A stretch of DNA of 20,418 bases from Rhizaria sp. SCN 62-66 (taxonomy: Eukaryota): positions 62,001 to 82,418 of the forward strand of contig MEDY01000092.1 in the NCBI GenBank assembly GCA_001724265.1, in the 5' to 3' direction. Every line of letters starts with the position of its first letter. Position 1 is the first letter of the stretch. Below, piece by piece: positions 2,035 to 16,208 of this stretch. The notes beneath the pieces are model-generated. The model made no database searches, was not told the origin of the DNA, and worked only from the letters and a program-made list of their open reading frames with translations. The translations under genes and the position numbers were made by a program.

Positions 2035-4284
2035 TTAAAGCTCATCCTTGTTCTCCGCCTCACTCTCAGTCTCCTCCGCCTCAACCTCAGCCTCAACAGA
2101 CTCACTGTCGTCGTCGTCGAGCGTGGCCACATCGAGCGTGGCGACGACGGGGTCCAGGTAGGCGTCCTCGTCGTGCGCCAGCCCCGGGTGCTTAAGCGCA
2201 ATCGTGCGGCTGACGTCGCGCGCGAGCGGGATGGCCAGCGTGCGCAGCGCCTCCTCGCCGGCAACCGAGGACAGCGACTGCGCGAGCACACCGTGCCACA
2301 CGTCGTCCATTCTACCCATAACGTAGGCGCGCAGACGCTCGCGCGCGCCTGGGTTGGCCTTAAGCACGGCCTCGATCTCGTCGCCGGTCAGCGCGCGGGG
2401 CTCCTCGTCCTCGTCCTCGGCCTCGCTCTCCTCAACGGCTGCGGACTCGGCCGCGGAGACGTCGTCGGCGTCGATAACCTTCTTGCTCTTGCGGTTCTTC
2501 TTCGTGGCCGCGAGCAACGGGCGCACGACCTCCTCGATGCCGAGCGCGAGGGAGATGGCGAGTTCGGAGCGGTCACTCTCGGCCGTCTTGAGCAGGTCCG
2601 TCAGCAGCCGCTTGGTCTCGGCCGCGTACATAACCACGAGCCGCTCGCGCGCCGTCAGCACACGGAGCGTGAAACCGGTCTTAGCGTCGGTCAGCGTGCC
2701 CGCGGCGGCCGCGGCAGCCACGGACTCGGACGTGGCGTCGAGCAGCGCGTCGTCCTGCTCCAGCGTCGTCGGGTAGTCGGACAGCGCGGCGCGGAAGACT
2801 GAGATGACGTGGTCGTACGTCGCCAGCGTGGGGCCGTCGAAGTGGCCGAAGGCGCCGGCGTTAAGGGACGCGAGCAGCGCTGGGGGGATGTGGTCGCCGT
2901 AGGACAGCACGGCGAAGAACGGGATGCGCAGGCCGGCAGCGCCGCTGGAGACGGGGTTGCCATCGGCGTCAACGTCGTTGACATCAGCGTACTTTTTGTC
3001 CGCAGACGAGGACGATGAGGACGAAGACTTGTCTTCTTCGTCTTCGTCATCGTCAGGTGCGCTGGCCTCGGACTCGAGCGAAGGGTACATGTTGAGGAGC
3101 TCAGACATCTGTGCCGCTGGCTGGCGGCGCGCGTTGGCAAGCACGGCGGGCGTGAACGACACGAAGATGTGGTCGCGGCTGTTGCGCTTGAGCATGAAGC
3201 CGTAGTCGGACAGCAGCGGCGAGTTGGGGTAGTTAGGGTGGTAGGAGATGGCCGCCGACTCGCCCTTGACGGCGGGGCGACCAGGCGTGTAGACCATCTC
3301 GTGCGCAGAGGTGTAATGGTACTTGTTCGGCACGTCATTGTCGTGGTTGATCAGATCGATGCCGGGCACGAGCGTCATGGAGAAGTGGTAATGCTTTCGG
3401 CCCCAGGCGAAGGTGCGGGAGCAGATGATCGAGATGGCCCAGTCGCGGAGCTCGGTGTTAACGGCCAGATGCTCGAACAGCGGGTCAGAGGCGAGAACGA
3501 GGTTCAGGTCCTTGAGCAGCTGCGCGCGCGTCGCGAAGGCCACCGACGCGTCACGGGGGCGGTCGAAGAGCACGGGGGCGACTTCCTCGTCGGTGAGCAT
3601 GAAGGGCAGTACGGGCGACGGGAGAGACGCGAGGTAGCGGGCAAACTTGGACTCGGGGTTTGCGCGCTCATTCATCAGGGCAATGATGGCAAGGATGCGG
3701 GACTGATCAGCGATGACGTACTCGATGCCGGGCGCCCAGAAGAGCTCGGAGATGCGCTGGACGAGCCGCTTCGTCGAGGGAAGCAAGTTCGGGTTGAAAG
3801 GATGCAGGAAGCATGCACCGGGGGTCGCGAGCAAGGGCTCTTCGTCGGTGACATCCTCGGTGAAATACATGTTGAAGTCGCCGAGCCCCGACTGACGGAG
3901 CTCGATCTTGCGAGAGGTAAAGCCGCACGAGACGAGGAAGTTTTTAAGAGCCTTGAACTCCTCGGTGATATTCTCGAGGGACGGGTGACCGAAGAAAGTT
4001 GCCTTGTCTTCGGGAGCCCACACGCCGCGCTCGCCTGTGATGTGGACGGACTGCTCCCAGCCGTCAATAGATGTGGTGGAGGCGTTCTCGCTCGCCAAAG
4101 TTGTCTTGGGAGGAGCACGCGTAGCAGTCTTGTCACAGACAGTGCCGTCAATGTTCGCCTCTGCGGCGTGCGCAGTGCTCGCCAGCAAAAGAGCTGAAGC
4201 AAGAATTGCACAGAACGCAGTAACACAGAGCAGCCATAAAGGCCGCGAGCGCGTAAAAACGTGTGGGTGGGCGATGAGGGCCAT
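2035..4284 (-). CDS. SET-domain protein methyltransferase, Rubisco LSMT/SETD3-SETD6-like, with N-terminal signal peptide and C-terminal KDEL (749 aa, intronless model)
   Basis: First in-frame ATG at 4284 (the ORF track starts at a GTG 9 nt upstream), stop TAA 2037-2035. LSMT-type SET motifs: WAISIICSRTF, LVPGIDLINHD, GESAAISY...NSPLLSDYGF; substrate-binding-domain motif LSDYPTTLEQDDALL. Hydrophobic N-terminus LWLLCVTAFCAILASALLLASTAHA; protein ends ...ENKDEL*. Confidence 0.88.
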   Translation of the reverse strand: MALIAHPHVFTRSRPLWLLCVTAFCAILASALLLASTAHAAEANIDGTVCDKTATRAPPKTTLASENASTTSIDGWEQSVHITGERGVWAPEDKATFFGHPSLENITEEFKALKNFLVSCGFTSRKIELRQSGLGDFNMYFTEDVTDEEPLLATPGACFLHPFNPNLLPSTKRLVQRISELFWAPGIEYVIADQSRILAIIALMNERANPESKFARYLASLPSPVLPFMLTDEEVAPVLFDRPRDASVAFATRAQLLKDLNLVLASDPLFEHLAVNTELRDWAISIICSRTFAWGRKHYHFSMTLVPGIDLINHDNDVPNKYHYTSAHEMVYTPGRPAVKGESAAISYHPNYPNSPLLSDYGFMLKRNSRDHIFVSFTPAVLANARRQPAAQMSELLNMYPSLESEASAPDDDEDEEDKSSSSSSSSADKKYADVNDVDADGNPVSSGAAGLRIPFFAVLSYGDHIPPALLASLNAGAFGHFDGPTLATYDHVISVFRAALSDYPTTLEQDDALLDATSESVAAAAAAGTLTDAKTGFTLRVLTARERLVVMYAAETKRLLTDLLKTAESDRSELAISLALGIEEVVRPLLAATKKNRKSKKVIDADDVSAAESAAVEESEAEDEDEEPRALTGDEIEAVLKANPGARERLRAYVMGRMDDVWHGVLAQSLSSVAGEEALRTLAIPLARDVSRTIALKHPGLAHDEDAYLDPVVATLDVATLDDDDSESVEAEVEAEETESEAENKDEL

Positions 4285-4958
4285 AGTTTGCACTCACCTG
4301 CTCCTTCGGAATAGTATGGTCGGGGCGCGGCCAAAGCGTAAGGATTAAGGTGAGTGAGACTGACTTTTAACAAAGAGTATAGTTTGACCGCCATAAAAAG
4401 TGACATAATATTAAACGTTGACAGATACTGAGCGGTCTGAAAGGTAAACTATGCATCCATAACCCCGACGCCCCTTGTCTCCCTTTGCCCCCCTACAACC
4501 GGCTGTATGTCTGGTATGTCTGTACTTTGACTGACAGTGACCGTGAGCATAGAGCGCTCACGGTCATCAGCGACGAGCTGTGTTGGACGGTCAGAGTCCT
4601 CGTCGATCTCTTGCTCGTGCCTCAGGGTGACGCGGGGATAACTTTATAGTGCACGCTGGACGGGGTTTGGGGTAACATAATTTTGCAAATGAGACGACGC
4701 AATGCAAACCTATTTCGTGCGCTGTTTAGTTTTAACAGTGACGATATACTAGATGATCTATTCCCCGTTTTATGCAGCGATTGATCTGCTCGACGCCGTC
4801 ATCTTAGCGCTCACTTGGCTCTCTCGCCATGGCTCCAACATTCTCCGACCACTTTATGCTTCTACCATATGCTGAACCGAGTTTTTTTACATTCCTTTCA
4901 CCGTATACATTACTCCCATCCCTCCTGGTCTTTGTTTTGTCCGCCAATTTAGATCAAG
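4285..4958. promoter_or_regulatory. Divergent (probably bidirectional) promoter region between the SET gene and BCAT
   Basis: Head-to-head start codons about 670 nt apart; lower GC than flanking exons. Inferred from gene geometry only. Confidence 0.5.
4538..4566. repeat. Perfect 11-bp inverted repeat (7-nt loop) in the divergent SET/BCAT intergenic region
   Basis: tgaccgtgagc-atagagc-gctcacggtca. Confidence 0.8.
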
Positions 4959-6535
4959 ATGCTTCGCAAGACCATTGGTCGCGTTGCCTCGCAGGCCATC
5001 GGCGTTTCCGCCCGCTGCGCCTTCTCCACCACCCCCGCTCCTTTCGACGTACGGTCTCTCTTCACATATACTTTATCTTCATCACTCCAAGTGCCCTATT
5101 CTTAATGACTTTGTTTGTACCCGTTTCCAGCTTGTTCTTACTAATCTCCGAGCATTCAATCTGCTCTAGCACAACAATCTTTCCGTTGTTTGCACCCCTT
5201 CCTCATCTTTGTCGCTTCCCATTGCTGCGTTTCTTTGTTCATCATGTACAGGCGTCTAAGCTCACCGTGACGCGCACTACCTCCCCTAAGGAGAAGATTC
5301 CTTACGAGAAGCTCAAGTTCGGCCACACCTTCACTGACCACATGATGGAGATTGACTGGAACGTACGTTAACAAAGACAAATCAAATCACGATATCATAC
5401 CATTTAAGATTATTATTTATTCTGTGATCATGTACCTTTTTATATAGTTTTATTTCTTTACTCACACATCCTGTGTCATGCACTCACTCTTTTTGTTTCG
5501 TGTTCCATTTGATTGACTTTTTTTGTTTCACTTTGCTTTTGACTTGCACAGGTCGCCAAGGGCTGGTCCGCGCCCGTGATCCGTCCCCACGGCCCGCTCT
5601 CGATTGACCCCGCCGCGTCATCCCTTCATTACGGCCTCCAGGGCTTCGAGGGCATGAAGGCGTACATCGACGCCTCGGGCAACATCCGTCTCTTCCGCCC
5701 CGACATGAACATGAAGCGCATCAAGACCACGGCCAAGCGCCTCCTGCTGCCGCAGATCGACGAGGAGCAGGCCCTGCTCTGCCTCAACGAGCTGCTGCGC
5801 ATTGACAAGGACTGGATCCCTAACAAGCGCGGCTATTCGCTCTACCTGCGCCCCACGATCATCTCCACCACGCCTTTCCTCGGTGTCGCGCCGCCCACCG
5901 ACGCCAAGTTCTACATCATTGCCTCCCCCGTCGGCCCGTACTATCCCACCGGCTTCGCGCCCGTCAAGCTGCTCGCCGACCCCAAGTACGTCCGTGCCTG
6001 GCCCGGCGGCACCGGCAACATCAAGTGCGGCGGCAACTACGCCATGTCCATCGGCCCGGCCCAGGAGGCCGCGCAGAAGGGCTACCAGCAGCTGCTCTGG
6101 CTCTTCGGCGAGGACCACCAGTGCACCGAGGTCGGCACCATGAACCAGTTCTGGTACTGGGTGTCGCCCGTGGACGGCGAGAAGGAGCTCGTCACCGCGC
6201 CTCTCGACGGCACGATCCTGCCCGGCGTGACCCGCGACTCGATCATCCGCCTCGCCAAGTCCTGGGGCATCCGCGTCCGCGAGGAGCACTACACGATCAA
6301 TGACGTGCTCAGCGCCATCAAGGACGGCCGCATGATCGAGGCCTTCGGCTCCGGCACCGCCGCTATCGTGTCCCCCGTCTCGGCCGTGGGCTACGAGGGC
6401 GTGGACCACCAGATCCCGCTCTCACCCAACAACCCCGCGCAGCAGGCCGGCGACCTCACCAAGAAGATCGCCGACACGCTCATGGACATCCAGTATGGCA
6501 CCGTCCCCCACGAGTGGTCCGTCGTCGTCAATTAA
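4959..6535 (+). CDS. BCAT: Branched-chain amino acid aminotransferase (PLP fold type IV), probably mitochondrial (394 aa, 3 exons)
   Basis: Exons 4959-5048, 5252-5362, 5552-6535 join in frame across phase-0 introns (GTACGG...ACAG; GTACGT...ACAG). Motifs LKFGHTFTDHM, LHYGLQGFEGMKAY, YLRP, catalytic KCGGNY, EVGTMN, ILPGVTRDS, EAFGSGTAA. N-terminus MLRKTIGRVASQAIGVSARCAFSTT is Arg/Ser/Ala-rich with no acidic residues, typical of a mitochondrial presequence. Stop TAA. Confidence 0.96.
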
Positions 6536-7115: not shown

Positions 7116-10040
7116 TCATTCGCGGAGGATGGCGCCCAACCGCGACGTGATGCGACTCGCCTGCATCGCCTCGGCGTCGCTGCCATCGCTCGCACCCTCG
7201 CCAAACGCGCCGCCAAAGCGCCCGTTGTCACTGGTGTTGCCGCCGCCGCCGGCGCTCAGCCCGGCGAATCCTCCGAGTCCAGTCCTCACGCTCGCATTGC
7301 CGGCGCCTAGGCTGCCGGCGGCGGCAATGGACACGAGGCTGTGCGAGTCGGCCGAGTGCTGACCGGCCCAGGAGCCGTACCCGGCCTTGCCACCGCCGCC
7401 GCTGTGCTGCGCGACGGACGCGAGCGAGTGGCCCTGTCCGCTGCTGCTCAGCGGCTGCTGCGGCGGCGAACTCGGCAGCTTGGCGTTGCTCGATGCAGAC
7501 GACGACGCGGAGGAGGAGGAAGAAGATGCGGACATCTTGGCCGCCTTTGCGCGCACGATAGCGAACACCTTTGCGCCGCCGAAGACCATCGCGGCGACGA
7601 CCAAGCACGCGCCCAGCAGCGCCGAGAGCAGCCGCGCGTCCCGCAGCTGCGCGGTCACTTTGTCTTTCTCCTGCACGGCCGCCGCCAAGGCTTCGGCAAC
7701 GCGGACCGTGGCCGCGGTCTCGGTTGCAAGGCGCTGCGACGCCTCGGCGGCGTCCGCGGCGGCCTTGGCGGCGGTTTTGGCCGCGGTGGCGGCGACCGTG
7801 CGCGCCTGGGTCATGCCGGCCTCCGCGGCGGCGGCGGCGGCGGCAACGGCAGCGGCGGCGTCCGCGGCGGACACACTCTGACTGGCGCCGTTGCTGTGAC
7901 TATCGGAGTCATCATCGTCGTCGTGGACGCAGATAATCGTCGTGATGGGGCGAGTGCAGGTGAAGACGGCCTTGCGCTCCCAGCGCTCTTTGTCGGCGTG
8001 CGCGGGGGTCGCGCCGGCCTCGCGCGCGGCGACGCCGATGCGCCACTTGAAAAAGAAATCCACACATAGAACAAGAAATGCGAAAGCATATATGAGTGGA
8101 GAAGTAACATGGAGGTTTAGTTCAGATTTAACCAAAACAGATAAGACTTGCATGCATTAAACTGCAAAACGGACCTGTGCATTGTCGTCCTTGGGGGAGT
8201 AGTTGATACCGCCGCGGCACATGTCATCATCACTGGGAGTGTTCACAACGACGCTGTCAAACAGCACAGTCGCCGAGCCGCCGCCGTCGAGATTCATCGC
8301 GTTGACCGCGCCGAGCTCGAACATAATCGCGGCCATCTCGGGCAGATCCACGCCCGTGTCCGTGAACGACTTGCCGTCGACAGTCGCCATGAGGAATTCG
8401 CCCGCAGCCGTGAAGCCGATCGCGGTGCGCGCGGAGCGGATCGACACGAAGCCAGAGCCGGACTCCTAAAAAGTTTGAGGCAGAGTCACAAAGAGTGACG
8501 AATGAAAACAAATGAGTGTTGCGTTGAAATATGCACATGATATTACAAAAGACGTGTGAGTTGATCACACGATTCAGAACAGTTACATTGTTGAAATGAT
8601 GTCTGTACGTACCTGGCCAGACATGTCTTCACCACGAGCACAGTCCTATACAGCAAGACAACAAGTAGAATCGAGAAAATACATCAAGAAAGGAAATTAG
8701 AATCCACAGAAGGTCGTATTACTAGAATAAACCAATAAGATATTGTCAATGACATCTTTCATCTTAGTTTCGATATATCATTGTTGACGTACGTGAGTGG
8801 TTTCGCACACGTTTTGCCCTTCCCTGACAAGCCACACAATGCCGCCCACGAGCTGCGTGAACCGCCAGTCGCGATCCTCGGCCATGGCCCGCGTAAGCTC
8901 GCCGCCGCGCAGCCCCGCGTGTGGGAAGCCCCTGCGCACGGTCACCGACAGCCGCGACAGGGCGCTCTCGGGCAGCTCGGTCAGGCTCTCCCCGGCGCGC
9001 GCCGCCGCCAGTGGGGCGTACGTCAGCAGCGGTGGCACGGGCTCCAGCGCGGCGGTCGCGCCGCCGGTGGCCCTGCGCTGTTCGCGCTCGCCCTTCTCGC
9101 TGTTGCTGAGGGCCTCCGCGCGGCTCTGCTCTGCCAGTACGGTTTCGATCACGGTGATCGCGCGCTCGATGGCCCGCTGATCGGCCTCGCTCTCAGTAGC
9201 CGCCTCGTTGTCATCATTGTGAGCGTTGCGACGTGACTCGTGCTGCGCAATCAGCGCCTGCGCCTGCGCCAGCTCGGCCGCGAGCATCTCTGCGCGCGCG
9301 GCGCGGGCGGCCCGCGCGTCTTCGCCCTCCCGGCCCGCCGCGGCCTCGGCCTGGGCCTTGGCGAGCTCGGGGAGCAGCGCACGCTCGCGGGCCGTGCGCT
9401 GTGCCTGCTCCGCAATCGACGCAGAGATGTCGCGCGGGTTGGACGACCACGGAGAGGAGGGCAGACGGCTCGCGAACTCGTCCAAGTATCCCATGAAGAA
9501 GAAACCGTTGTCGGTGACGCCGAAGTGGACGTTGCGAAACGTCGCCGGCTGCACGGTGCGGCCCTCGGAGACGACGGCGTTGATGCACGCGCCCGTGTCT
9601 GTTTTGAAGAACCCGCCGTTTGTCGCCGCGACGCAGAGGCGCGAACGAGAGGTGAGAACTGGGTCGACACGGGTGCCGCAGCCGGTGGGCGGGGGCGTCA
9701 CGGAGATGTGGCCGCGCGGGTTGCGGGACAGCATGGCGTTGCCGAAGTCGCGGTTGCCGCCGCGGATGGAGCTGAAACGGCGCCAGTCAACCTGCGACGA
9801 CGAGACATTGGAGTCTGCTAGCGGGAGCGCAATGGGGTAGAACGATTGGTGTACGCCGCCGTACTGCTCGGTGTTCGTCTCGACAGCTGTGACAAGAGAC
9901 GGGAACGCGATGGTGATCAATGCGAGGGCGATGACGAGCAGAGAACGGCACTGTGTACGATATTGTTTGAGTTGTGTGTGCAGTGCGACTTGAGGTGCGC
10001 GTGTGGGGGAAGAAGGCTTCCGCCACAACTGCGGTCGCAT
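7116..10040 (-). CDS. NAGPA: N-acetylglucosamine-1-phosphodiester alpha-N-acetylglucosaminidase-like (uncovering enzyme / phosphodiester glycosidase), type I membrane protein (833 aa, 4 exons)
   Basis: Exons 10040-8793, 8645-8613, 8465-8175, 8045-7116, all phase-0 GT-AG junctions. Motifs CVAATNGGFF, NVHFGV...GYL, QLVGGIVWLVREG, SARTAIG, NAMNLDGGGSAT, PSD, CTRPITTIICVH match the NAGPA family. N-terminal hydrophobic segment LLVIALALITIAFPSLVTA; C-terminal TM LLSALLGACLVVAAMVFGGA; Ser/Gly-rich tail; stop TGA. An alternative exon-1 donor (GTGTGC, 18 nt upstream) cannot be excluded. Confidence 0.88.
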
Positions 10041-10757
10041 TGCGAGGAACAACAGCGACTAGATAGTAAGTCAAGGAGCAACGGGGGTTGTTGTCAGGGT
10101 TGCGGTTTCACGTGAGAGAGCATAGCAGATATTGGTGTGGTTAGATTCGGATGCAGCAAAGGAGGGAGCAAAACGATTGGGCGAGAGAGACATTCAGGAG
10201 CTGAAAACAAACGGCTCCACGGGGTAGTTGTAATACAACACAATAAAGCAAGCAGCGGCGCTCGTTATTCTAGTAGATCCATCTTTGAAGCATGCACGGA
10301 GTAGTTAAGCAATCAGACTGGGATGAGTGACGAGAGGCATCGGTTAGCAGCGTCTTCGAAGTAGCTAGATATGCGTCACGCATCCGTCCAGCGCCATTAT
10401 ACTACAACAGTCATATTGAATATGATGCATGTGGTATGCTTCTATTTACCATTCTACTATACGACGTTGTTGACGAGCCAAGTACACACTTTCTTTTCTG
10501 TGCACTTGACACTCACTTGCGCTCCGACCACGAACCATCTTGCTTCCTCGCAAATGCCATTATCTCTTTCTCACAGACCACTATTCACTTGAATTTGCAA
10601 GTGACATAACTTTAAATGATGCGAAAATTAACCAACGAATGCTGTTTTTTCTCAACCTTACTGTCCTCTATGTATATCCCCTTGCATTCGCTCTGATCCG
10701 GCTCGCACCAAATGACATCAACATCTCGTCCCCAACCCCCCCCGGCTGCCCCTCTAG
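10041..10757. promoter_or_regulatory. Divergent (probably bidirectional) promoter region between NAGPA-like and ZNG1-like genes
   Basis: Head-to-head start codons about 720 nt apart; each half is pyrimidine-rich on the strand of the gene it precedes. Inferred from geometry. Confidence 0.5.
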
Positions 10758-12779
10758 ATGAGCTCCAATGGTCCTGCACCACCGAACCCGGGCTCGTACG
10801 CCGACGAGTTCGACGCCATCCCCGACCTTGTCGACCTGAACGTCCCCGTTGAGGCCCCCGTCGCGATCCCCCTGTCAGCTCTCGTCCACGACGTTCGCAG
10901 TGGCGCGAACACCACCACTGACGGCGCCAGCTCTAACTCGGCGAACCCCGCCGCACAAGCCGAGTTCCCGACCTCCGAAGACGTCACCACGGGCGTTGTC
11001 CCGCTGACTATCCTCACCGGCTGGCTCGGCGCCGGCAAGACGACCTTTCTGCACCACTTAGTCTCCGAGATCTCGCGCACCAACCGGCGCGCCGCGATCC
11101 TCCAGAACGAAACGTCGTCGCTCATGGGCGTCGAGCGCTCGCTCGCGCTCACCGACGCCAACGGTACCGTCGGCGAGGTCTTCGAGCTGGGCAACGGCTG
11201 CGTGTGCTGCTCAGTGCGTTCCGACTTCAGCTCTGCTGTGGAGGAGCTTCTTGCACGCCGTCGCTTCGACTTCGTCATCGTCGAGTGTTCCGGCCTCGCC
11301 GACCCGGGCCGGCTGGCCAACTCGCTCTGGGCCGACGACGAGCTTGGCGGACGCGTGTATCTTGACGCGATCATCGCGTTCGTGGACGCGCCCGCGTTTG
11401 CCGACTCGGCCGCTAACCCCTTCGCGCTCACGGTCAGTTCCGAGGCGGTGAAGCAGGCCACCGAGGCGCTCCGCACCGCGGTCGCGCAGGACCCCTCGAT
11501 CGCGGGCGCCACGGACGCCATCGCCGCTACCCGCGCCGCGGAGGCCGCGAGTGGCGACAGCAACAGCAACGGTCCCCGCGTGATTGCTCCCCGAGGCATC
11601 GAGGTTGTTCCTGACTCGAGCTCCAACTCTAATGCGACCGCGACTGTAACTGCGGACAAGCCCGCTGCTCCCGGCCAGCTCTCCTCCGAGACGGACGCGA
11701 CGGCCGCCGACGTTAGCGCCATGATCTCCCTCCAGATCAGCGACGCTGACGTCATCGTCCTCAACAAGGCCGATCTCTTCCCCCAGAGCGCAGTCCCCAC
11801 TTCTGTCACCGCCGCGGTGCAGGCGCTGAACCCGTCCGCCGCCGTCGTCGCTGCCGAGCGCTCGCGCGTGCCGCTGGATCTCGTACTAAACCGCCGCGCG
11901 CTCCGCCTCGGCGCGGCCGCCACGGGCGCTGCGGTCACGCGCGCGTTCGGCGGCGACGATAAGTGCACTGCAGAGTGCACTGCAGAGTGCGCTGCAGACT
12001 GCGCTGCTGCGAACGCAAAGTGCACGACGGAGTGTACGGACGCTGCTCACAGTCATTCTGCTCAAAATTACACCCATAGGCATAATCATAAGAGCGCCCA
12101 CAGCCACTCTTCTGCTCATGCGAGTGCGAGCTCGATCGATGAGCAAATCGGCTCTTGGCTTGTCTCGCGCACCGGCACGAGTACCGCGAATTCTAGCACT
12201 AACAACGCTAGCACTGACTCCAGCGCTCCCGCGGCTGGCACACATCACGGTCTGTCGACGATCTTGCTGCGCCGCCGCTTCCCCGCTGGGCGCGGCTTCG
12301 ACCACAAGCGGCTCCAGCTCTGGCTCACGACCACGCTCGACGACGCCAATGTCGCGTACACCGTGGCGCAGCAGCAGGCCGCGCGCGGCGCCGACGCTGA
12401 GACGGCCGCGGCGGCGGCGCGGGCCGCGTGGGTGGCCGAGGGCGCGGCGGCCGACGCGGGCCGGCGCGGGATGTATTTCCTCCGCACCAAGGGCGTCGTG
12501 CCCGTACAGGGCGAGCTGAAGCGGTGGTATCTGCAGGCCGTGCGGGAGACGTTTGACCTGGCGCCCGCGACGGCGCACGCGCTGATCGACCTCGTTCCGG
12601 CTGACGGTGCCGTGGCCGCGAATGCTGAGAACGTGACCGCGAGTGCAAGTGCGTCTGAGTCGGGGGCGAACAGCGACGTGTGGAGCGAAGGGAAGGAGAG
12701 GGAGGCGCGGATTGCGGTGATTGGACTGGGGTTGGACGCGAAGTTCATCTGTGAAGGCCTCGAGACGTGCATTGACTGA
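10758..12779 (+). CDS. ZNG1: CobW/COG0523 G3E-family GTPase, zinc metallochaperone (ZNG1/CBWD-like), 673 aa, intronless
   Basis: Walker A LTGWLGAGKTT, ILQNE, metal motif ELGNGCVCCS (CxCC), Walker B ECSGLADPG, G4 NKAD, His-rich linker, CobW C-terminal motif LRTKGVV, and N-terminal acidic IPDLV resembling the ZNG1 PELV motif. ATG to TGA. Confidence 0.9.
   Translation: MSSNGPAPPNPGSYADEFDAIPDLVDLNVPVEAPVAIPLSALVHDVRSGANTTTDGASSNSANPAAQAEFPTSEDVTTGVVPLTILTGWLGAGKTTFLHHLVSEISRTNRRAAILQNETSSLMGVERSLALTDANGTVGEVFELGNGCVCCSVRSDFSSAVEELLARRRFDFVIVECSGLADPGRLANSLWADDELGGRVYLDAIIAFVDAPAFADSAANPFALTVSSEAVKQATEALRTAVAQDPSIAGATDAIAATRAAEAASGDSNSNGPRVIAPRGIEVVPDSSSNSNATATVTADKPAAPGQLSSETDATAADVSAMISLQISDADVIVLNKADLFPQSAVPTSVTAAVQALNPSAAVVAAERSRVPLDLVLNRRALRLGAAATGAAVTRAFGGDDKCTAECTAECAADCAAANAKCTTECTDAAHSHSAQNYTHRHNHKSAHSHSSAHASASSIDEQIGSWLVSRTGTSTANSSTNNASTDSSAPAAGTHHGLSTILLRRRFPAGRGFDHKRLQLWLTTTLDDANVAYTVAQQQAARGADAETAAAAARAAWVAEGAAADAGRRGMYFLRTKGVVPVQGELKRWYLQAVRETFDLAPATAHALIDLVPADGAVAANAENVTASASASESGANSDVWSEGKEREARIAVIGLGLDAKFICEGLETCID
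11961..12008 (+). repeat. Coding 12-nt tandem repeat encoding (K/E/D)C(T/A)A units
   Basis: aagtgcactgca gagtgcactgca gagtgcgctgca gactgcgctgct = KCTA ECTA ECAA DCAA inside the CobW ORF. Confidence 0.85.
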
Positions 12780-13346: not shown

Positions 13347-16208
13347 TCAAGCCACCACATTGCCGCGCCCCGCGCGGAGCATCTCCCTCCAGTCCTCGGC
13401 ACGCGCGCGCATCGCCAGCGCGCTCTTCTGCGCGGCCAGCTCCATCCCGTACAGGCGCTGCGCCTGCGGGCCGACGACGGCGATGTGCCGCTTCGTCGCC
13501 AGCACGGCTTTGGCGACGTCGGGGCGCGAAGTGGCCGCGATCGCGCGCACGTGCTCGCGCCCGCGCTCCAGGTCCTTCTCCGTCACCGCGGGCACCTCGG
13601 TGTCGCCGAGCAGCTCGCTCACAGCGCCCAGCAGCTCAGTCTCGCACTGCCACAGCGTGCACGCGGCACTCTTCTTGCCGCGGCCCCAGTGCATGCTGGC
13701 GTCGCCCGTGGGAACGGAGCCCGCGCCCGCGGACTGGACCGCGGTGCAGCCGCCGTCGTGGCCGCCGTTCTTGCACTTGTGGAACCACACGAGCTCGTTC
13801 TGCACCGCGACGAGCGACACGGCGAGGCCCTGAGCGCCCGCGCGGCCCGTGCGGCCGACGCGGTGGACGTAGGTCGCGGCGGCCGCGGGCAGCGTAAAGT
13901 TCACGACAAGGGGTAGACCCGCGATGTCGATGCCGCGCGCGGCGACGTCCGTGCAGACGAGGAAGCGGGTAGAGCCTGCACGGAAGGCCGCGAGCTGCGC
14001 AGCACGGTCAGCCTGAAAGAGTGACAGACGGAGAAAATAAATACAAGAACGAGAATGTCAGCAATACATCATGACTTCTAGCAATTAGCAAGAAAAACCT
14101 TGTTTAAAGTGGCTTGTTGTTGAAAAACGTGGAATATGATCGATATCGTGTAAAATCAGTGTAAATTGACATACCTGGCCTGCGTGCAGCGCGAGCGCCG
14201 AGTGGCCGCAGTGGACCAGGAAGCGCGCCACGAGATCGCAGTCAACGCGCGTGCGGCAGAAGACGATCGCGGACGAGGGCGCGAGCGTCGCGATGATCCG
14301 CGCCAGTGCCGCGAGCTTAAGTGACTTGACGCCGAACGACAGCACTTCGGCCGCGTCCGAGCCTGCCGTCGTGTTGAGCAGCGTGTGGATGCCGTCGGTG
14401 AAGTCGCGCAGACCGGCGAGCGAGACGCTGCCCTCGGCGCCCTTGCCGTCGAGCGCGGGCATGTCGCGGAAAGTCAAGCCGCTCTCGCGGGGCAGGAGCT
14501 CCTCGGGGTCAAGCCCGCTGTACGTCCCCTTGAACAGCGCGGGCTCCGTCTTCGGCCACCCAGCGGGCATGTTGCTGTTATCACCAGCGCCAGCGCCCGC
14601 AGCGCCTGCGGCGGCGGTGTTCCAGTCCGCGGGGACCCAGGAGCGGTCGCGCAGCGCGTCGATGGTGAGCGCGACGTGGTCGACGTTGACGGGCACCGTC
14701 GTCTCGCCCTTAAGGTCGACGAGCTGCGGCGTGCGGCACAGCGCGCCAGCCATCGCGCGTGCATCGAGCGAGTGCAGCGTCGCCGAGCAGATGATGCGCT
14801 GCGCGCGAGGGGCCGGCGCGAGCGGCAGCGCGGCCGCCAGCTCCATCACGAGAGCGCGCGAAGAGCCCGAGAAGAGCTCGTCGGCCTCGTCCAGCACGAA
14901 GAAGCGCGCCTTGGACAGGGAAACCTCGCCCGACGCGACGGCGGAGCGCACGCAGGCGACGGTGCCGACGAGCAGGTGCGCCGTGTACGCGGCAGAGTTG
15001 GGCAGCTTGACCGCGAACGACGAGGCCGCAGCAGCATCGCTGTTGTCATCACCCTTCTTGCCGTTGTTGTTGTTTGACTTGGCAGCGCCGCCGGAGCGCG
15101 ATGCCACGGCGCCGTTGGGCGTGAGCAGGCCCATGGTGACCGAGGGCGCAGTCAGGTGCGCGGTGAAGGACTGGAGCTCCTCGTACACCTGCTGTGCGAG
15201 TTCGCGCGTGGGCTCGAGGATCACGCACACGACGTGTGACGCGGACGCGGAGTCAGACTTGGCGGTCTTGTCGCCAGCCTTCGCCCCACCCTTGGCGTTG
15301 GTGCCGCCGGACTTGTTCGCGGTGCCCTTGTTGTTCGTACCCGCCGCAGCGGCAGTGGTGTCTGCGACCTGAGCAGAGCCGAGGGGCTTGTAGCCCATCA
15401 GATCAGTCGCCACAAAGGGGCCCGCAAAGTTCACGACGACGTCGGCGTTCGAGATGAGGACCGCGGGGAAGAGCGGGGCCGCGCCGCCCTTGGGGAGGTT
15501 GGCGAAGGCCTGTGCTACGAACGCGCCGTTCTTGCCGAAGCCGATGGTGCCGGCGTCAACGTCGAGGAACACACCGATCGTGTCGCCCGCAGTGTACTTG
15601 GCGGGGAAGTCACCGAAGGTGCCGGCGTGCGAGGTCTTGCCCGCGGCGCCGTAGCCCCAGGACAAGGCGTCGAGCCCCAACCCGGCGACCGGGGAGGCGG
15701 CGGTGCTCACGCCGATGCGCGCCATGCCCTCATCAGTCAGCGTCACCTCCCAATACCAGCGGCCGCGGGTAACGCCAAGCAGGCTGCGCGCGCCGTACCA
15801 GCCGCTCTCGGCGCGGCACTGCGCGCGGAGGCCCGGTCCGCCCGCGCCGCCGTAGAGAGGCTTCTCGCCGCCGTCCGCAGAGGGAGCGAAAGGAGCGATG
15901 GTGACGGGCTCAGAACGGTCGTGCGGGGAGAGCTGGAAGTTGGGCCGCCCGTCGGCGAGCACGACCGGCATGACATCGGGCGCGGAGACGGTGGCGACCC
16001 CGCGGAGCGTCTCTGTGATGAGCTGGAGCACGGGCAACGCGAGGGCGCCCGTCTTGCCGGAGCCCGTCTCGGCGGCAATCATGACGTCGGCACCGCCCAG
16101 AATGAGCGGGATGGCCTCGTCCTGCACGTCGCGGGGAAGCAACCAGCCCTTCTCCTCGACCGCGGTGATGAGCTCGGGGCACAGACCCAGCGCCTCGAAG
16201 GAAGACAT
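13347..16208 (-). CDS. DDX1: ATP-dependent DEAD-box RNA helicase with SPRY insertion, DDX1 (899 aa, 2 exons)
   Basis: Exons 16208-14175 and 14012-13347; phase-0 intron 14174-14013 (GTATGT...TTTCAG). Q motif GWLLPRDVQ, motif I AAETGSGKTGA, SPRY domain (GRWYWEV...ARIGVS...SWGYG...GDTIGVFLD...LFPAV) between motifs I and Ia (diagnostic of DDX1), PTRELA, DEAD, CSATLH, IVFCRT, TDVAARGIDI, YVHRVGRTGRA, VWFHKC. Stop TGA. Confidence 0.94.

Follow-up and report, generated by a model that had tools for sequence, protein, structure and literature searches.

Does a SET-domain methyltransferase work inside the endoplasmic reticulum (ER) of a protist? Protein lysine methylation is usually seen as a cytosolic, nuclear or plastid process, and methylation of proteins in the ER has scarcely been described. 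The question is raised by a gene on a 20,418-nucleotide stretch of DNA from Rhizaria sp. SCN 62-66 (contig MEDY01000092.1, positions 62,001 to 82,418; hereafter the window), in which a first-pass annotation had read a SET-domain enzyme addressed to the ER lumen by a signal peptide and a C-terminal KDEL. The organism is uncultured, the sequencing samples that match the locus come from wastewater and bioreactors, and our analysis was in silico throughout. We find a transcribed gene with an uninterrupted ORF, a signal-peptide-like N-terminus, a terminal KDEL, a SET-type fold and the cofactor and catalytic residues, and we weigh below what this combination implies for the address and activity of its product.

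A transcribed single-exon gene

The gene is a single exon on the minus strand (2035..4284), one uninterrupted ORF of 749 codons plus TAA (stop 2035-2037). An in-frame TGA lies 12 nt before the start codon at 4284, which is the first ATG to follow it and is flanked by A (-3) and G (+4); the second Met of the protein, residue 140, is already within the conserved domain. GC3 of the ORF is 0.83, whereas the GC content on its two sides is 0.43 and 0.49, which is a coding signal (Table 1).

Transcription was assessed with contigs from several sequencing sets. Those of sets X5 and X6 carry the run label 'RNA? (probably DNA)', no run is on record as RNA, and depth is about 2; we take both as RNA of this organism because they contain spliced joints and show exon-only depth. 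In the neighbouring aminotransferase gene, GT..AG joints are present at 5362>5552 and 5048>5252, and X5/X6 depth is absent from that gene's second intron (5363-5551) and from intergenic bins. Contigs of these two sets are colinear with the SET gene at 1979-2128, 2316-2737, 2897-3092, 3424-3617 and 3969-4267, including two X5 records with 0 differences, one across the signal-peptide codons (record 20, 4117-4267) and one across the KDEL/stop end (record 17, 1979-2128). The poly-A library X17 covers 3865-4020 of the gene, and assembly X4, from another study, independently reproduces both gene ends, its record 9 (1500-2473) differing at one position, 1609, which lies beyond the ORF. Whether transcripts lack the signal-peptide segment, a check proposed in the first-pass annotation, was answered favourably: wastewater cDNA contigs match codons 6-56 and the KDEL/stop end colinearly and without splice joints.

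Contigs of X4, X5 and X6 have loose ends at 3029-3055, and those of X17 at 2403-2424 and 2922-3005, in low-complexity acidic/Ser codons. Because a colinear X6 contig bridges 2897-3092, we do not take these ends for introns; in our reading they come from other genes' contigs or from breaks induced by repeats. Elsewhere in the window, the adjacent DDX1-like helicase has Atlas look-alikes only in animal and apicomplexan clusters (scores 0.89-0.92), and Rfam and tRNA scans of the window found nothing.

Table 1. Features of the predicted protein and their coordinates in the window.
Feature	Residues	Position	Strand	Basis
Signal peptide or signal anchor	1-41	4162..4284	-	Sole hydrophobic stretch, AlphaFold helix, cDNA
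Disordered Ser/Thr-rich linker with sequon N67-A-S	42-83	4036..4161	-	pLDDT <50 at 40-82
Split SET catalytic domain (putative) with inserted helical i-SET region	~100-376	3157..3987	-	Structure match, invariant columns
Low-complexity acidic/poly-Ser insert	~395-455	2920..3102	-	Insert in alignment; without counterpart in all aligned relatives
Helical Rubisco-LSMT substrate-binding-type domain	~456-587	2524..2919	-	Pfam and fold alignments
C-terminal extension: helices, family-conserved strand (EEALRTLAIPL), disordered acidic tail	588-745	2050..2523	-	Alignment, model, composition
Terminal KDEL (AAG GAT GAG CTT), ER-retrieval tetrapeptide		2038..2049	-	ORF, cDNA

SET core, catalytic residues and predicted target

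Assignment to the LSMT/SETD3/SETD6 type of SET enzymes, already made at first reading, was borne out by Pfam, phmmer, profile, Foldseek and VIA comparisons. The Pfam SET model often overlooks the split SET domain found in this class, and the HMM search suggested in the first-pass annotation succeeded only in part: the substrate-binding family PF09273 was matched at E 3.2e-4, barely passing its cut-off (21.8 versus 21.6 bits), whilst Pfam SET (PF00856) was not matched even at E up to 1. Among 12 clade members, PF09273 matches five (best E 1.9e-13) and PF00856 matches three with E no higher than 0.01 (best 5.8e-8). Against PDB sequences, phmmer placed PAP7 first (1.4e-7), with pea LSMT at 7.6e-5, and a profile of the clade returned SETD3 as best match (1.5e-43), followed by LSMT (1.4e-38) and SETD6 (6e-20). 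Structure comparison gave the same enzymes: Foldseek found SETD3, LSMT and SETD6 at E 6e-15 and weaker, and VIA Z scores to SETD6, LSMT and SETD3 were 23-24, with 358-375 residues aligned at rmsd 4.8-6.0 in the model range 100-589; SMYD proteins were far below at Z 12. The fold alignments reach residues 569-589. In the AlphaFold model the core has a pLDDT of mostly 90 or higher and overlays enzymes bound to SAH or sinefungin at Z ~24; pLDDT is low at residues 417-434 of the acidic/poly-Ser insert, a region spanned by the colinear cDNA contig over 2897-3092.

The residues that bind cofactor and support catalysis in this class are retained. R290, D310, N313, H314, Y348 and Y361-G362-F363 are invariant in 12/12 clade rows of a MAFFT alignment, and, with the exception of G362, each also reaches at least 90% conservation over 74 rows; with F292, which is also kept, they make up the set R290, F292, D310, N313-H314, Y348 and Y361-G-F. 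The NH (INHD) and post-SET Tyr motifs named in the first-pass annotation are accordingly present, as DLINHD (N313-H314, nt 3343-3348) and DYGF (Y361, nt 3202-3204). Its description of the first SAM-binding GxG strand (SGLGDFNMYF, residues 133-142) as atypical holds for the second glycine: of the two glycines in the usual G-x-G, the first is matched by G136 and the second by F138, where the relatives P0002 and P0003 have Y and F, so that an aromatic residue occupies this position in all three proteins. Glycines are not absent from the strand, G134-L-G136 being there. On sequence and model, the protein is predicted to be a two-domain SET methyltransferase of the LSMT/SETD3/SETD6 class (residues ~100-587) and is probably active, with the reservation that motif retention does not prove activity, because the best PDB match, PAP7/pTAC14, is a plastid RNA polymerase subunit.

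Lysine and histidine had both been offered as possible targets, and the comparison favours the former. The SETD3 residues N255 and W273, which we take to have a role in target choice, correspond to Phe292 and Ile309 here, and the clade consensus at these positions is Phe plus an aliphatic residue. F292 also aligns with the Phe of the LSMT 'RAF' motif, and a Phe at this R+2 position suggests a lysine pocket; I309, at the position of SETD3 W273 and the LSMT Ala, agrees with neither model enzyme. According to PDB titles, SETD3 is the actin histidine-73 methyltransferase, and its N255F/W273A mutant has been crystallised with a Lys-substituted actin peptide. The clade profile scores this Lys-adapted mutant 5.5 bits higher than the wild type (152.6 versus 147.1 bits). 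The target would therefore appear to be lysine, with histidine disfavoured.

Terminal signals and their distribution among relatives

The N-terminus reads MALIAHPHVFTRSRP-LWLLCVTAFCAILASALLLAS-TAHA/AE and comprises an n-region with R12 and R14, an h-region (residues 16-36, nt 4177-4239) and, last, the c-region TAHA/AE, where positions -3 and -1 hold small residues (A-x-A). Residues 14-41 are the only hydrophobic stretch of the protein, the Kyte-Doolittle 19-residue mean exceeding 1.6 only in windows beginning at residues 14-23 (maximum 2.52), and residues 14-39 are modelled as a helix by AlphaFold. Both the AxA-type hydrophobic N-terminus and the two sequons of the first-pass annotation are confirmed, the latter as N67-A-S and N105-I-T, with no others in the protein. 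At ~21 residues the h-region is long for a cleaved signal, so a signal anchor is possible instead; with this signal-peptide-like N-terminus, the protein would be either soluble in the ER lumen or held there by a type-II anchor. At the end of the linker begins a motif, G-W ... W-x-P-E ... F-F-x-H-P-S, that the protein shares with P0002 and P0003 in the MAFFT alignment.

At the opposite end, the final 49 residues contain 20 D/E and 1 K/R, and KDEL stands directly before the TAA stop; sequence, cDNA and assembly X4 all agree with the acidic tail and perfect KDEL (AAG GAT GAG CTT TAA) first reported. The tail has pLDDT <50, and its KDEL is thus probably exposed. KDEL at an exposed C-terminal end is the textbook ER retrieval signal, and the tetrapeptide fits [KRHQSA][DENQ]EL, which we take to be the PROSITE-type pattern of ER-retrieved residents. 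The chance of an exact terminal KDEL is 2.4e-5 from the composition of the protein and 9.8e-5 from that of the tail, and the chance of any ending of the wider pattern is 6e-4 to 2e-3.

To place these signals in context, we gathered 73 relatives, all from one exhaustive protein search. Word-indexed protein searches with the whole protein or with residues 84-400 returned the query itself only, and a word-indexed search with the clade profile returned the query and one weak match (P0075). In a 74-row tree, the protein (P0001) groups with P0002, P0003 and P0004 (SH-aLRT 100) inside an 11-row clade (99), support values that deserve less trust as they come from a 'quick' LG+G4 run. Six of the 11 clade rows, P0001 included, pass the threshold for a hydrophobic N-terminus, P0012 is weaker and four start inside the domain. 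Mapped on the tree, this label changes 10 times, a number as low in 16 of 500 shuffles; the trait is clustered, yet far from a single origin across the 74 rows. The metagenome loci L001 and L002, 52% identical to P0002, have a predicted signal peptide as well, and signal peptides occur in both GC-rich and very AT-rich eukaryote contigs. The neighbours of the P0002-like L001 locus differ from those of this gene (for example an ORF that by its look is of proteasome beta type), and the neighbours compared show no positional orthology between the two loci. Look-alikes in the Atlas include Bacillariophyta SET clusters (feature rank 18, structure row 3), which we regard as a lead only.

The first-pass annotation had asked whether orthologs keep both terminal signals, and the two fared differently. 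A hydrophobic N-terminus is kept in the closest relatives of full length (P0002, P0003 and L001/L002) and in more distant clade members, and the secretory N-terminus is conserved within the clade, whereas a K/HDEL ending was found in 0/73 relatives and 0/45 related metagenome loci. Because KDEL is not conserved among the relatives, its use is argued here from one sequence and general knowledge.

Proposed address, alternatives and known systems

With a signal-peptide-like N-terminus and a terminal KDEL, the likeliest address of the protein is the ER lumen, as the first-pass annotation had proposed. We give an even chance to the full reading that an LSMT/SETD3/SETD6-class enzyme enters the ER, is retained there by KDEL and methylates lysines of ER and secretory proteins in the lumen. 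The protein would cross the ER membrane by means of its signal peptide or an uncleaved signal anchor, would then probably be N-glycosylated at one or both sequons, and would be held in the lumen by the KDEL receptor acting on the exposed KDEL of the disordered acidic tail. There it would transfer the methyl group of S-adenosylmethionine to the epsilon-amino group of lysine, not to histidine, in ER-resident or transiting secretory proteins. Logically, such a reaction would need a supply of SAM into the ER lumen. That scales, tests or surface proteins are involved is no more than conjecture.

A secretory enzyme that is not an ER resident, acting instead in a later compartment (Golgi, vesicles or cell surface) or secreted, with a leaky, masked or incidental KDEL, is unlikely in our view. 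All relatives found are without K/HDEL though many keep a signal peptide, so that the ancestral address of the clade was probably beyond the ER, and the acidic tail lifts the chance of a KDEL-like ending to ~1e-4 to 2e-3. Even this raised estimate does not exceed 2e-3, however, and an exact KDEL closing a disordered, exposed tail is a classic retrieval signal. A parallel for dual location is METTL9, a signal-peptide methyltransferase of another fold that is both in the ER and secreted, according to the available text of its preprint (bioRxiv 10.64898/2025.12.23.696137). Residence in the lumen need not entail catalysis, since the SET fold might bind a client or partner like PAP7/pTAC14, without methyl transfer, and lumenal SAM would then not be required. 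PAP7 is the best PDB sequence match, P0001, P0002 and P0003 have an unusual first cofactor strand, the Pfam SET model is unmatched and lumenal SAM supply is only inferred for this organism. We nonetheless judge such a pseudoenzyme quite unlikely, given that the clade- and family-kept residues R290, F292, D310, N313, H314, Y348 and Y361 are all present, in a confidently modelled core (pLDDT mostly 90 or higher) that matches SAH- and sinefungin-bound enzymes at Z ~24.

That the hydrophobic stretch is no ER signal seems very unlikely, whether through a wrong 5' gene model or through tail- or membrane-anchoring with a cytosolic catalytic domain acting on SETD3/SETD6-like substrates. The start codon (4282-4284) lies beyond RNA cover, which ends at 4267, a donor-like CAG/GTGAGT is located 5-16 nt upstream of ATG 4284, and the h-region matches a transmembrane helix in length. 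Against this, an RNA contig is colinear from 4267 down, leaving <30 nt for an intron from that donor, and no other Met precedes the conserved domain. Basic residues before the helix favour an N-in, C-out (lumenal) topology, the clade has signal peptides repeatedly, and a terminal KDEL would be meaningless in the cytosol. Heterokont plastid import uses an aromatic or Leu residue right after cleavage, and here Ala follows the predicted cleavage site, which speaks against the extremely unlikely case of a secondary alga sending an LSMT via the ER to a complex plastid to methylate Rubisco or aldolase. The Ser/Thr-rich disordered stretch 42-83 after the signal peptide would suit that route, and plants and Nannochloropsis have LSMT-like enzymes in their plastids (PMC11012178, available text). 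The stretch contains several acidic residues, however, KDEL is at odds with onward transport, and the samples are wastewater and bioreactors, with no algal sign in the window.

Returning to the ER-retained lysine methyltransferase as our preferred reading, we suggest, far more tentatively, that it belongs to a widespread, undescribed protist clade of secretory-pathway SETD3/LSMT-like lysine methyltransferases. Supplied by an ER SAM carrier, lysine methylation in the ER and the compartments that follow it might then be a general eukaryotic system and not a diatom speciality, a combined proposal that we hold to be possible rather than probable. A SAM importer has so far been proposed only for the plant Golgi, as far as the available text of that preprint goes (bioRxiv 10.1101/2021.07.06.451061). 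Signal-peptide SET proteins are already known in diatoms, and ER or extracellular protein methylation is known for other folds. No description of a SET protein with KDEL was found among the literature matches listed, which left subscription journals mostly uncovered. In the open literature searched, signal-peptide SET proteins are discussed only for diatom silica walls, and the protein methyltransferases of the secretory pathway (METTL9 and fungal NHMT) have different folds and target histidine. With its explicit signal for ER retention, seen as yet in a single sequence from an uncultured organism, this SET enzyme is a tangible candidate for methylating lysines in the lumen of a non-diatom; it offers a handle on the substrates and a reason to seek an ER SAM importer.

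Among known systems, pea LSMT (PDB 1mlv, 1ozv, 1p0y, 2h21-2h2j) has the same split SET and helical substrate-binding domains (VIA Z 23.6-23.9 over 358-363 residues), and its R-x-F, D-L-I-N-H and D-Y-G-F motifs match this protein residue for residue, although identity in structure-based alignments is ~20% and the LSMT Ala is Ile309 here. LSMT is sent to the plastid stroma by a transit peptide, whereas a signal peptide, two sequons and KDEL stand here instead, along with a 60-residue acidic/Ser insert and a 160-residue C-terminal extension. SETD3 (6mbj, 6ict, 3smt and others) and SETD6 share the fold at Z 23-24 but are cytosolic or nuclear, in contrast to the ER signals found here. Diatom BacSETs are likewise SET-domain proteins linked to the secretory pathway; they are described as diatom-specific and silica-wall-linked, whereas this gene comes from a wastewater eukaryote and encodes a KDEL, and we set the two side by side by description only. 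The 2020 BacSET paper is said to report ER signal peptides in these diatom proteins. In Seminavis, BacSETs are SET proteins co-expressed with silica-deposition-vesicle genes, according to the text available (bioRxiv 10.1101/2020.11.23.393678). Two enzymes set a precedent for methylating proteins in the ER or further along: METTL9, which has a conserved signal peptide and is N-glycosylated (bioRxiv 10.64898/2025.12.23.696137, available text), and the fungal NHMT, an ER resident that methylates His1 of secreted LPMOs (PMC10349129, available text). Both are Rossmann-type (seven-beta-strand), histidine-targeting enzymes rather than SET proteins, described without KDEL in the portions of these sources available, and NHMT is anchored by seven transmembrane helices, unlike the present protein with its single hydrophobic stretch.

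Class, cofactor pocket and likely target residue

By fold and motifs, the protein of the SET gene (P0001, the query) is a member of the LSMT/SETD3/SETD6 class, as the first-pass annotation had proposed. Pfam matched only the Rubisco-LSMT substrate-binding domain, barely over cut-off, and a PDB sequence search returned PAP7/pTAC14 (1.4e-7) and pea LSMT (7.6e-5); the clade profile reached SETD3 at 1.5e-43, LSMT at 1.4e-38 and SETD6 at 6e-20. In the AlphaFold model, built from 74 aligned sequences (mean pLDDT 73, pTM 0.67), the two core domains were mostly at least 90, and Foldseek ranked SETD3, LSMT, SETD6 and PAP7 at the top. VIA-align superposed 358-375 residues within model range 100-589 at Z 23-24, with SMYD proteins next at Z 12, and the Atlas look-alikes belonged to the same families as the Foldseek and VIA-align matches.

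Residues R290, D310, N313, H314, Y348, Y361, G362 and F363 were invariant in a 12-row clade alignment and, G362 excepted, each at least 90% conserved across 74 rows. Because these residues are kept and align with the LSMT motifs R-A-F, D-L-I-N-H and D-Y-G-F, the predicted cofactor pocket looks intact, with the caveat that an aromatic replaces the usual second Gly of the first strand in P0001 and its relatives P0002 and P0003. A Lys/His target had been suggested; the sequence favours lysine and not histidine, since F292 and I309 occupy the positions of SETD3 N255 and W273 (Phe and Ala in LSMT) and an N255F/W273A SETD3 chain scores 5.5 bits above wild type against the clade profile. Both SETD3-specific residues are therefore absent here; the two positions, named in titles of Lys-converting mutants, presumably play a part in the choice between Lys and His.

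Predicted targeting signals and their conservation

The N-terminus reads MALIAHPHVFTRSRP, then LWLLCVTAFCAILASALLLAS, then TAHA and AE on either side of the predicted cleavage site; it is the only stretch to exceed a Kyte-Doolittle 19-residue mean of 1.6, and was modelled by AlphaFold as a helix (14-39). Exactly two sequons occur (N67-A-S and N105-I-T), and the final 49 residues hold 20 D/E versus 1 K/R and end in KDEL, a terminus expected by chance at 2.4e-5 under the protein's own composition or 9.8e-5 under that of the tail (6e-4 to 2e-3 for any PROSITE-like ER ending). All features noted at first pass, namely the hydrophobic N-terminus, AHA/AE site, two sequons, acidic tail and KDEL, are present.

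An exhaustive search recovered 74 proteins at E <=1e-3, the query counted, and 9 at <=1e-10, the closest being P0002 (38% identity) and P0003 (32%). In a quick LG+G4 tree, P0001 groups with these two and the fragment P0004 (SH-aLRT 100), nested in an 11-row clade (99). A simple N-terminal hydrophobicity threshold was passed by 6 of the 11 clade rows, with a signal anchor placed at about residue 43 in P0009, and by 7 of 63 rows outside the clade; in P0012 the N-terminus is hydrophobic but more weakly so, and the remaining four clade rows start no earlier than the conserved domain. Among 45 loci from a metagenome scan, the L001/L002 protein (52% identity to P0002) carries a clear signal peptide, and L031, L032, L036/L037 and L042, read stop-to-stop in the standard code without intron modelling, encode LSMT-like SET proteins of 364-396 aa opening with signal-peptide-like stretches. 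Since the latter lie on very AT-rich (GC 0.19-0.22), eukaryote-like metagenomic contigs, secretory SET proteins seem to be present in quite different organisms. Given such stretches in clade rows, L001/L002 and the AT-rich loci, the predicted secretory N-terminus is a conserved clade trait that recurs elsewhere in the family. Of the two signals whose retention in orthologs had been in question, only this one is kept: KDEL is not conserved, with K/HDEL endings in 0 of 73 relatives and 0 of 45 metagenome locus ORFs, and the nearest relatives end about 160 residues before the C-terminus of P0001.

Gene model, transcription and neighbourhood

Features of the window discussed here
Feature	Position	Strand	Detail
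SET gene ORF	2035-4284	-	749 codons + TAA, uninterrupted
Donor-like CAG/GTGAGT	4289-4300	-	5-16 nt upstream of SET ATG
Branched-chain/class-IV aminotransferase gene	4829-6535	+	PF01063, E 1.6e-28
ORF with internal signal-anchor-like stretch (LLVIALALITIAFPSLVTA)	8778-10052	-	
CobW/ZNG1-like GTPase	10758-12779	+	PF02492, E 1.4e-38, plus CobW_C
DDX1-type helicase (SPRY inserted in DEAD domain)	14085-16208	-	

An in-frame TGA lies 12 nt before the ATG at 4284, which has A at -3 and G at +4, and another start is not plausible because the next Met (residue 140) lies within the conserved domain. GC3 of the SET ORF is 0.83 versus flank GC of 0.43 and 0.49, and throughout the window coding blocks are likewise richer in GC than the spacers between them. 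The window is eukaryotic DNA, and near-identical DNA occurs in bioreactor and wastewater metagenomes from several studies. Two GT..AG introns interrupt the aminotransferase gene, at 5049-5251 and 5363-5551, and public cDNA contigs confirm that both are removed by splicing.

These contigs come from two cDNA libraries, X5 and X6, made from the same wastewater sample and labelled 'probably DNA' in the run annotation; they contain the joints 5048>5252 and 5362>5552, and depth falls only in exons, with zero in intron 2 and in intergenic bins. Along the SET gene, colinear X5/X6 contigs cover 1979-2128 (spanning KDEL and stop), 2316-2737, 2897-3092, 3424-3617 and 3969-4267, and no joints inside the ORF were found among them. 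The last contig corresponds to codons 6-56, so the full hydrophobic core and predicted cleavage site are present in RNA, and the transcripts without a signal-peptide segment considered at first pass did not appear. This backing is supportive and not conclusive, because cover ends 15 nt short of the start codon, the contigs are only about 2 deep and the runs bear the 'probably DNA' label. X17, a poly-A library from another study, covers 3865-4020, and X4, an independent assembly, reproduces 1500-2473 and 3942-5674, with a single difference listed within the ORF (position 2881, a synonymous third-position change at Pro468). The donor-like motif is probably fortuitous; provided that the RNA contig reaching 4267 is real, <30 nt are left, too few for a true intron to begin there. 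X4, X5 and X6 contigs break at 3029-3055 into unrelated continuations, inside acidic/poly-Ser codon repeats; the repeats may have caused mis-joins, or the low-complexity insert may vary in length.

At the aminotransferase gene, X4 and X17 contigs of 90-95% identity, most of their mismatches falling on every third base, reveal a sister strain or species. The helicase ORF stops abruptly past '...LHAGQ', then GT, without Helicase_C, and its last exon(s) probably lie beyond an intron. A long, low-complexity insert in the CobW/ZNG1-like GTPase contains runs rich in Cys (CTAEC repeats) and in His (HSHS...HRHNH...HSHS), which possibly bind metal. The ORF with the signal-anchor-like stretch, two genes from the SET gene, may encode another lumenal protein and matches the phosphodiester glycosidase family NAGPA weakly, below threshold (E 0.004).

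Proposed route, alternatives and known systems

Sequence features and clade conservation suggest that the protein would enter the ER co-translationally through its N-terminal signal; the core of about 21 residues could instead be retained as a type-II anchor, with lumenal topology unchanged. N67 and/or N105 could be N-glycosylated; the KDEL receptor, from what is established of it, would retrieve the protein via its exposed KDEL; and fold and motifs point to SAM-dependent lysine methylation of ER residents or passing cargo, which would require SAM in the lumen. The initial interpretation is partly supported, its underlying observation confirmed, and we regard the whole chain of ER entry, KDEL retrieval and lumenal lysine methylation as an even call.

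With a predicted secretory N-terminus shared in the clade and KDEL seen in P0001 alone of the sequences compared, at a low chance expectation, a post-ER or secreted enzyme is a minority reading that deserves some weight. A lumenal pseudoenzyme, considered beside the first-strand aromatic and the retained pocket residues, is unlikely. That the protein faces the cytosol or is mis-modelled is improbable, RNA cover stopping short of the start codon and yet including the hydrophobic core, and plastid targeting, with which the terminal KDEL conflicts, is very improbable indeed.

In full-text searches of mainly open-access literature, we found no SET protein with KDEL described; this one, a single sequence from an uncultured eukaryote, gives lumenal lysine methylation a concrete candidate that can be put to the test. 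Diatom BacSETs, SET proteins with signal peptides, reportedly go back to a founding paper by Nemoto (2020). They are treated in a Seminavis preprint (bioRxiv 10.1101/2020.11.23.393678), and another preprint describes putative carriers of SAM in the Golgi of plants (bioRxiv 10.1101/2021.07.06.451061). Secretory proteins are already known to be methylated by enzymes with folds other than SET, namely METTL9, which carries a signal peptide and N-glycans, localises to the ER and is secreted (bioRxiv 10.64898/2025.12.23.696137), and fungal NHMT, a seven-transmembrane methyltransferase in the ER (PMC10349129).
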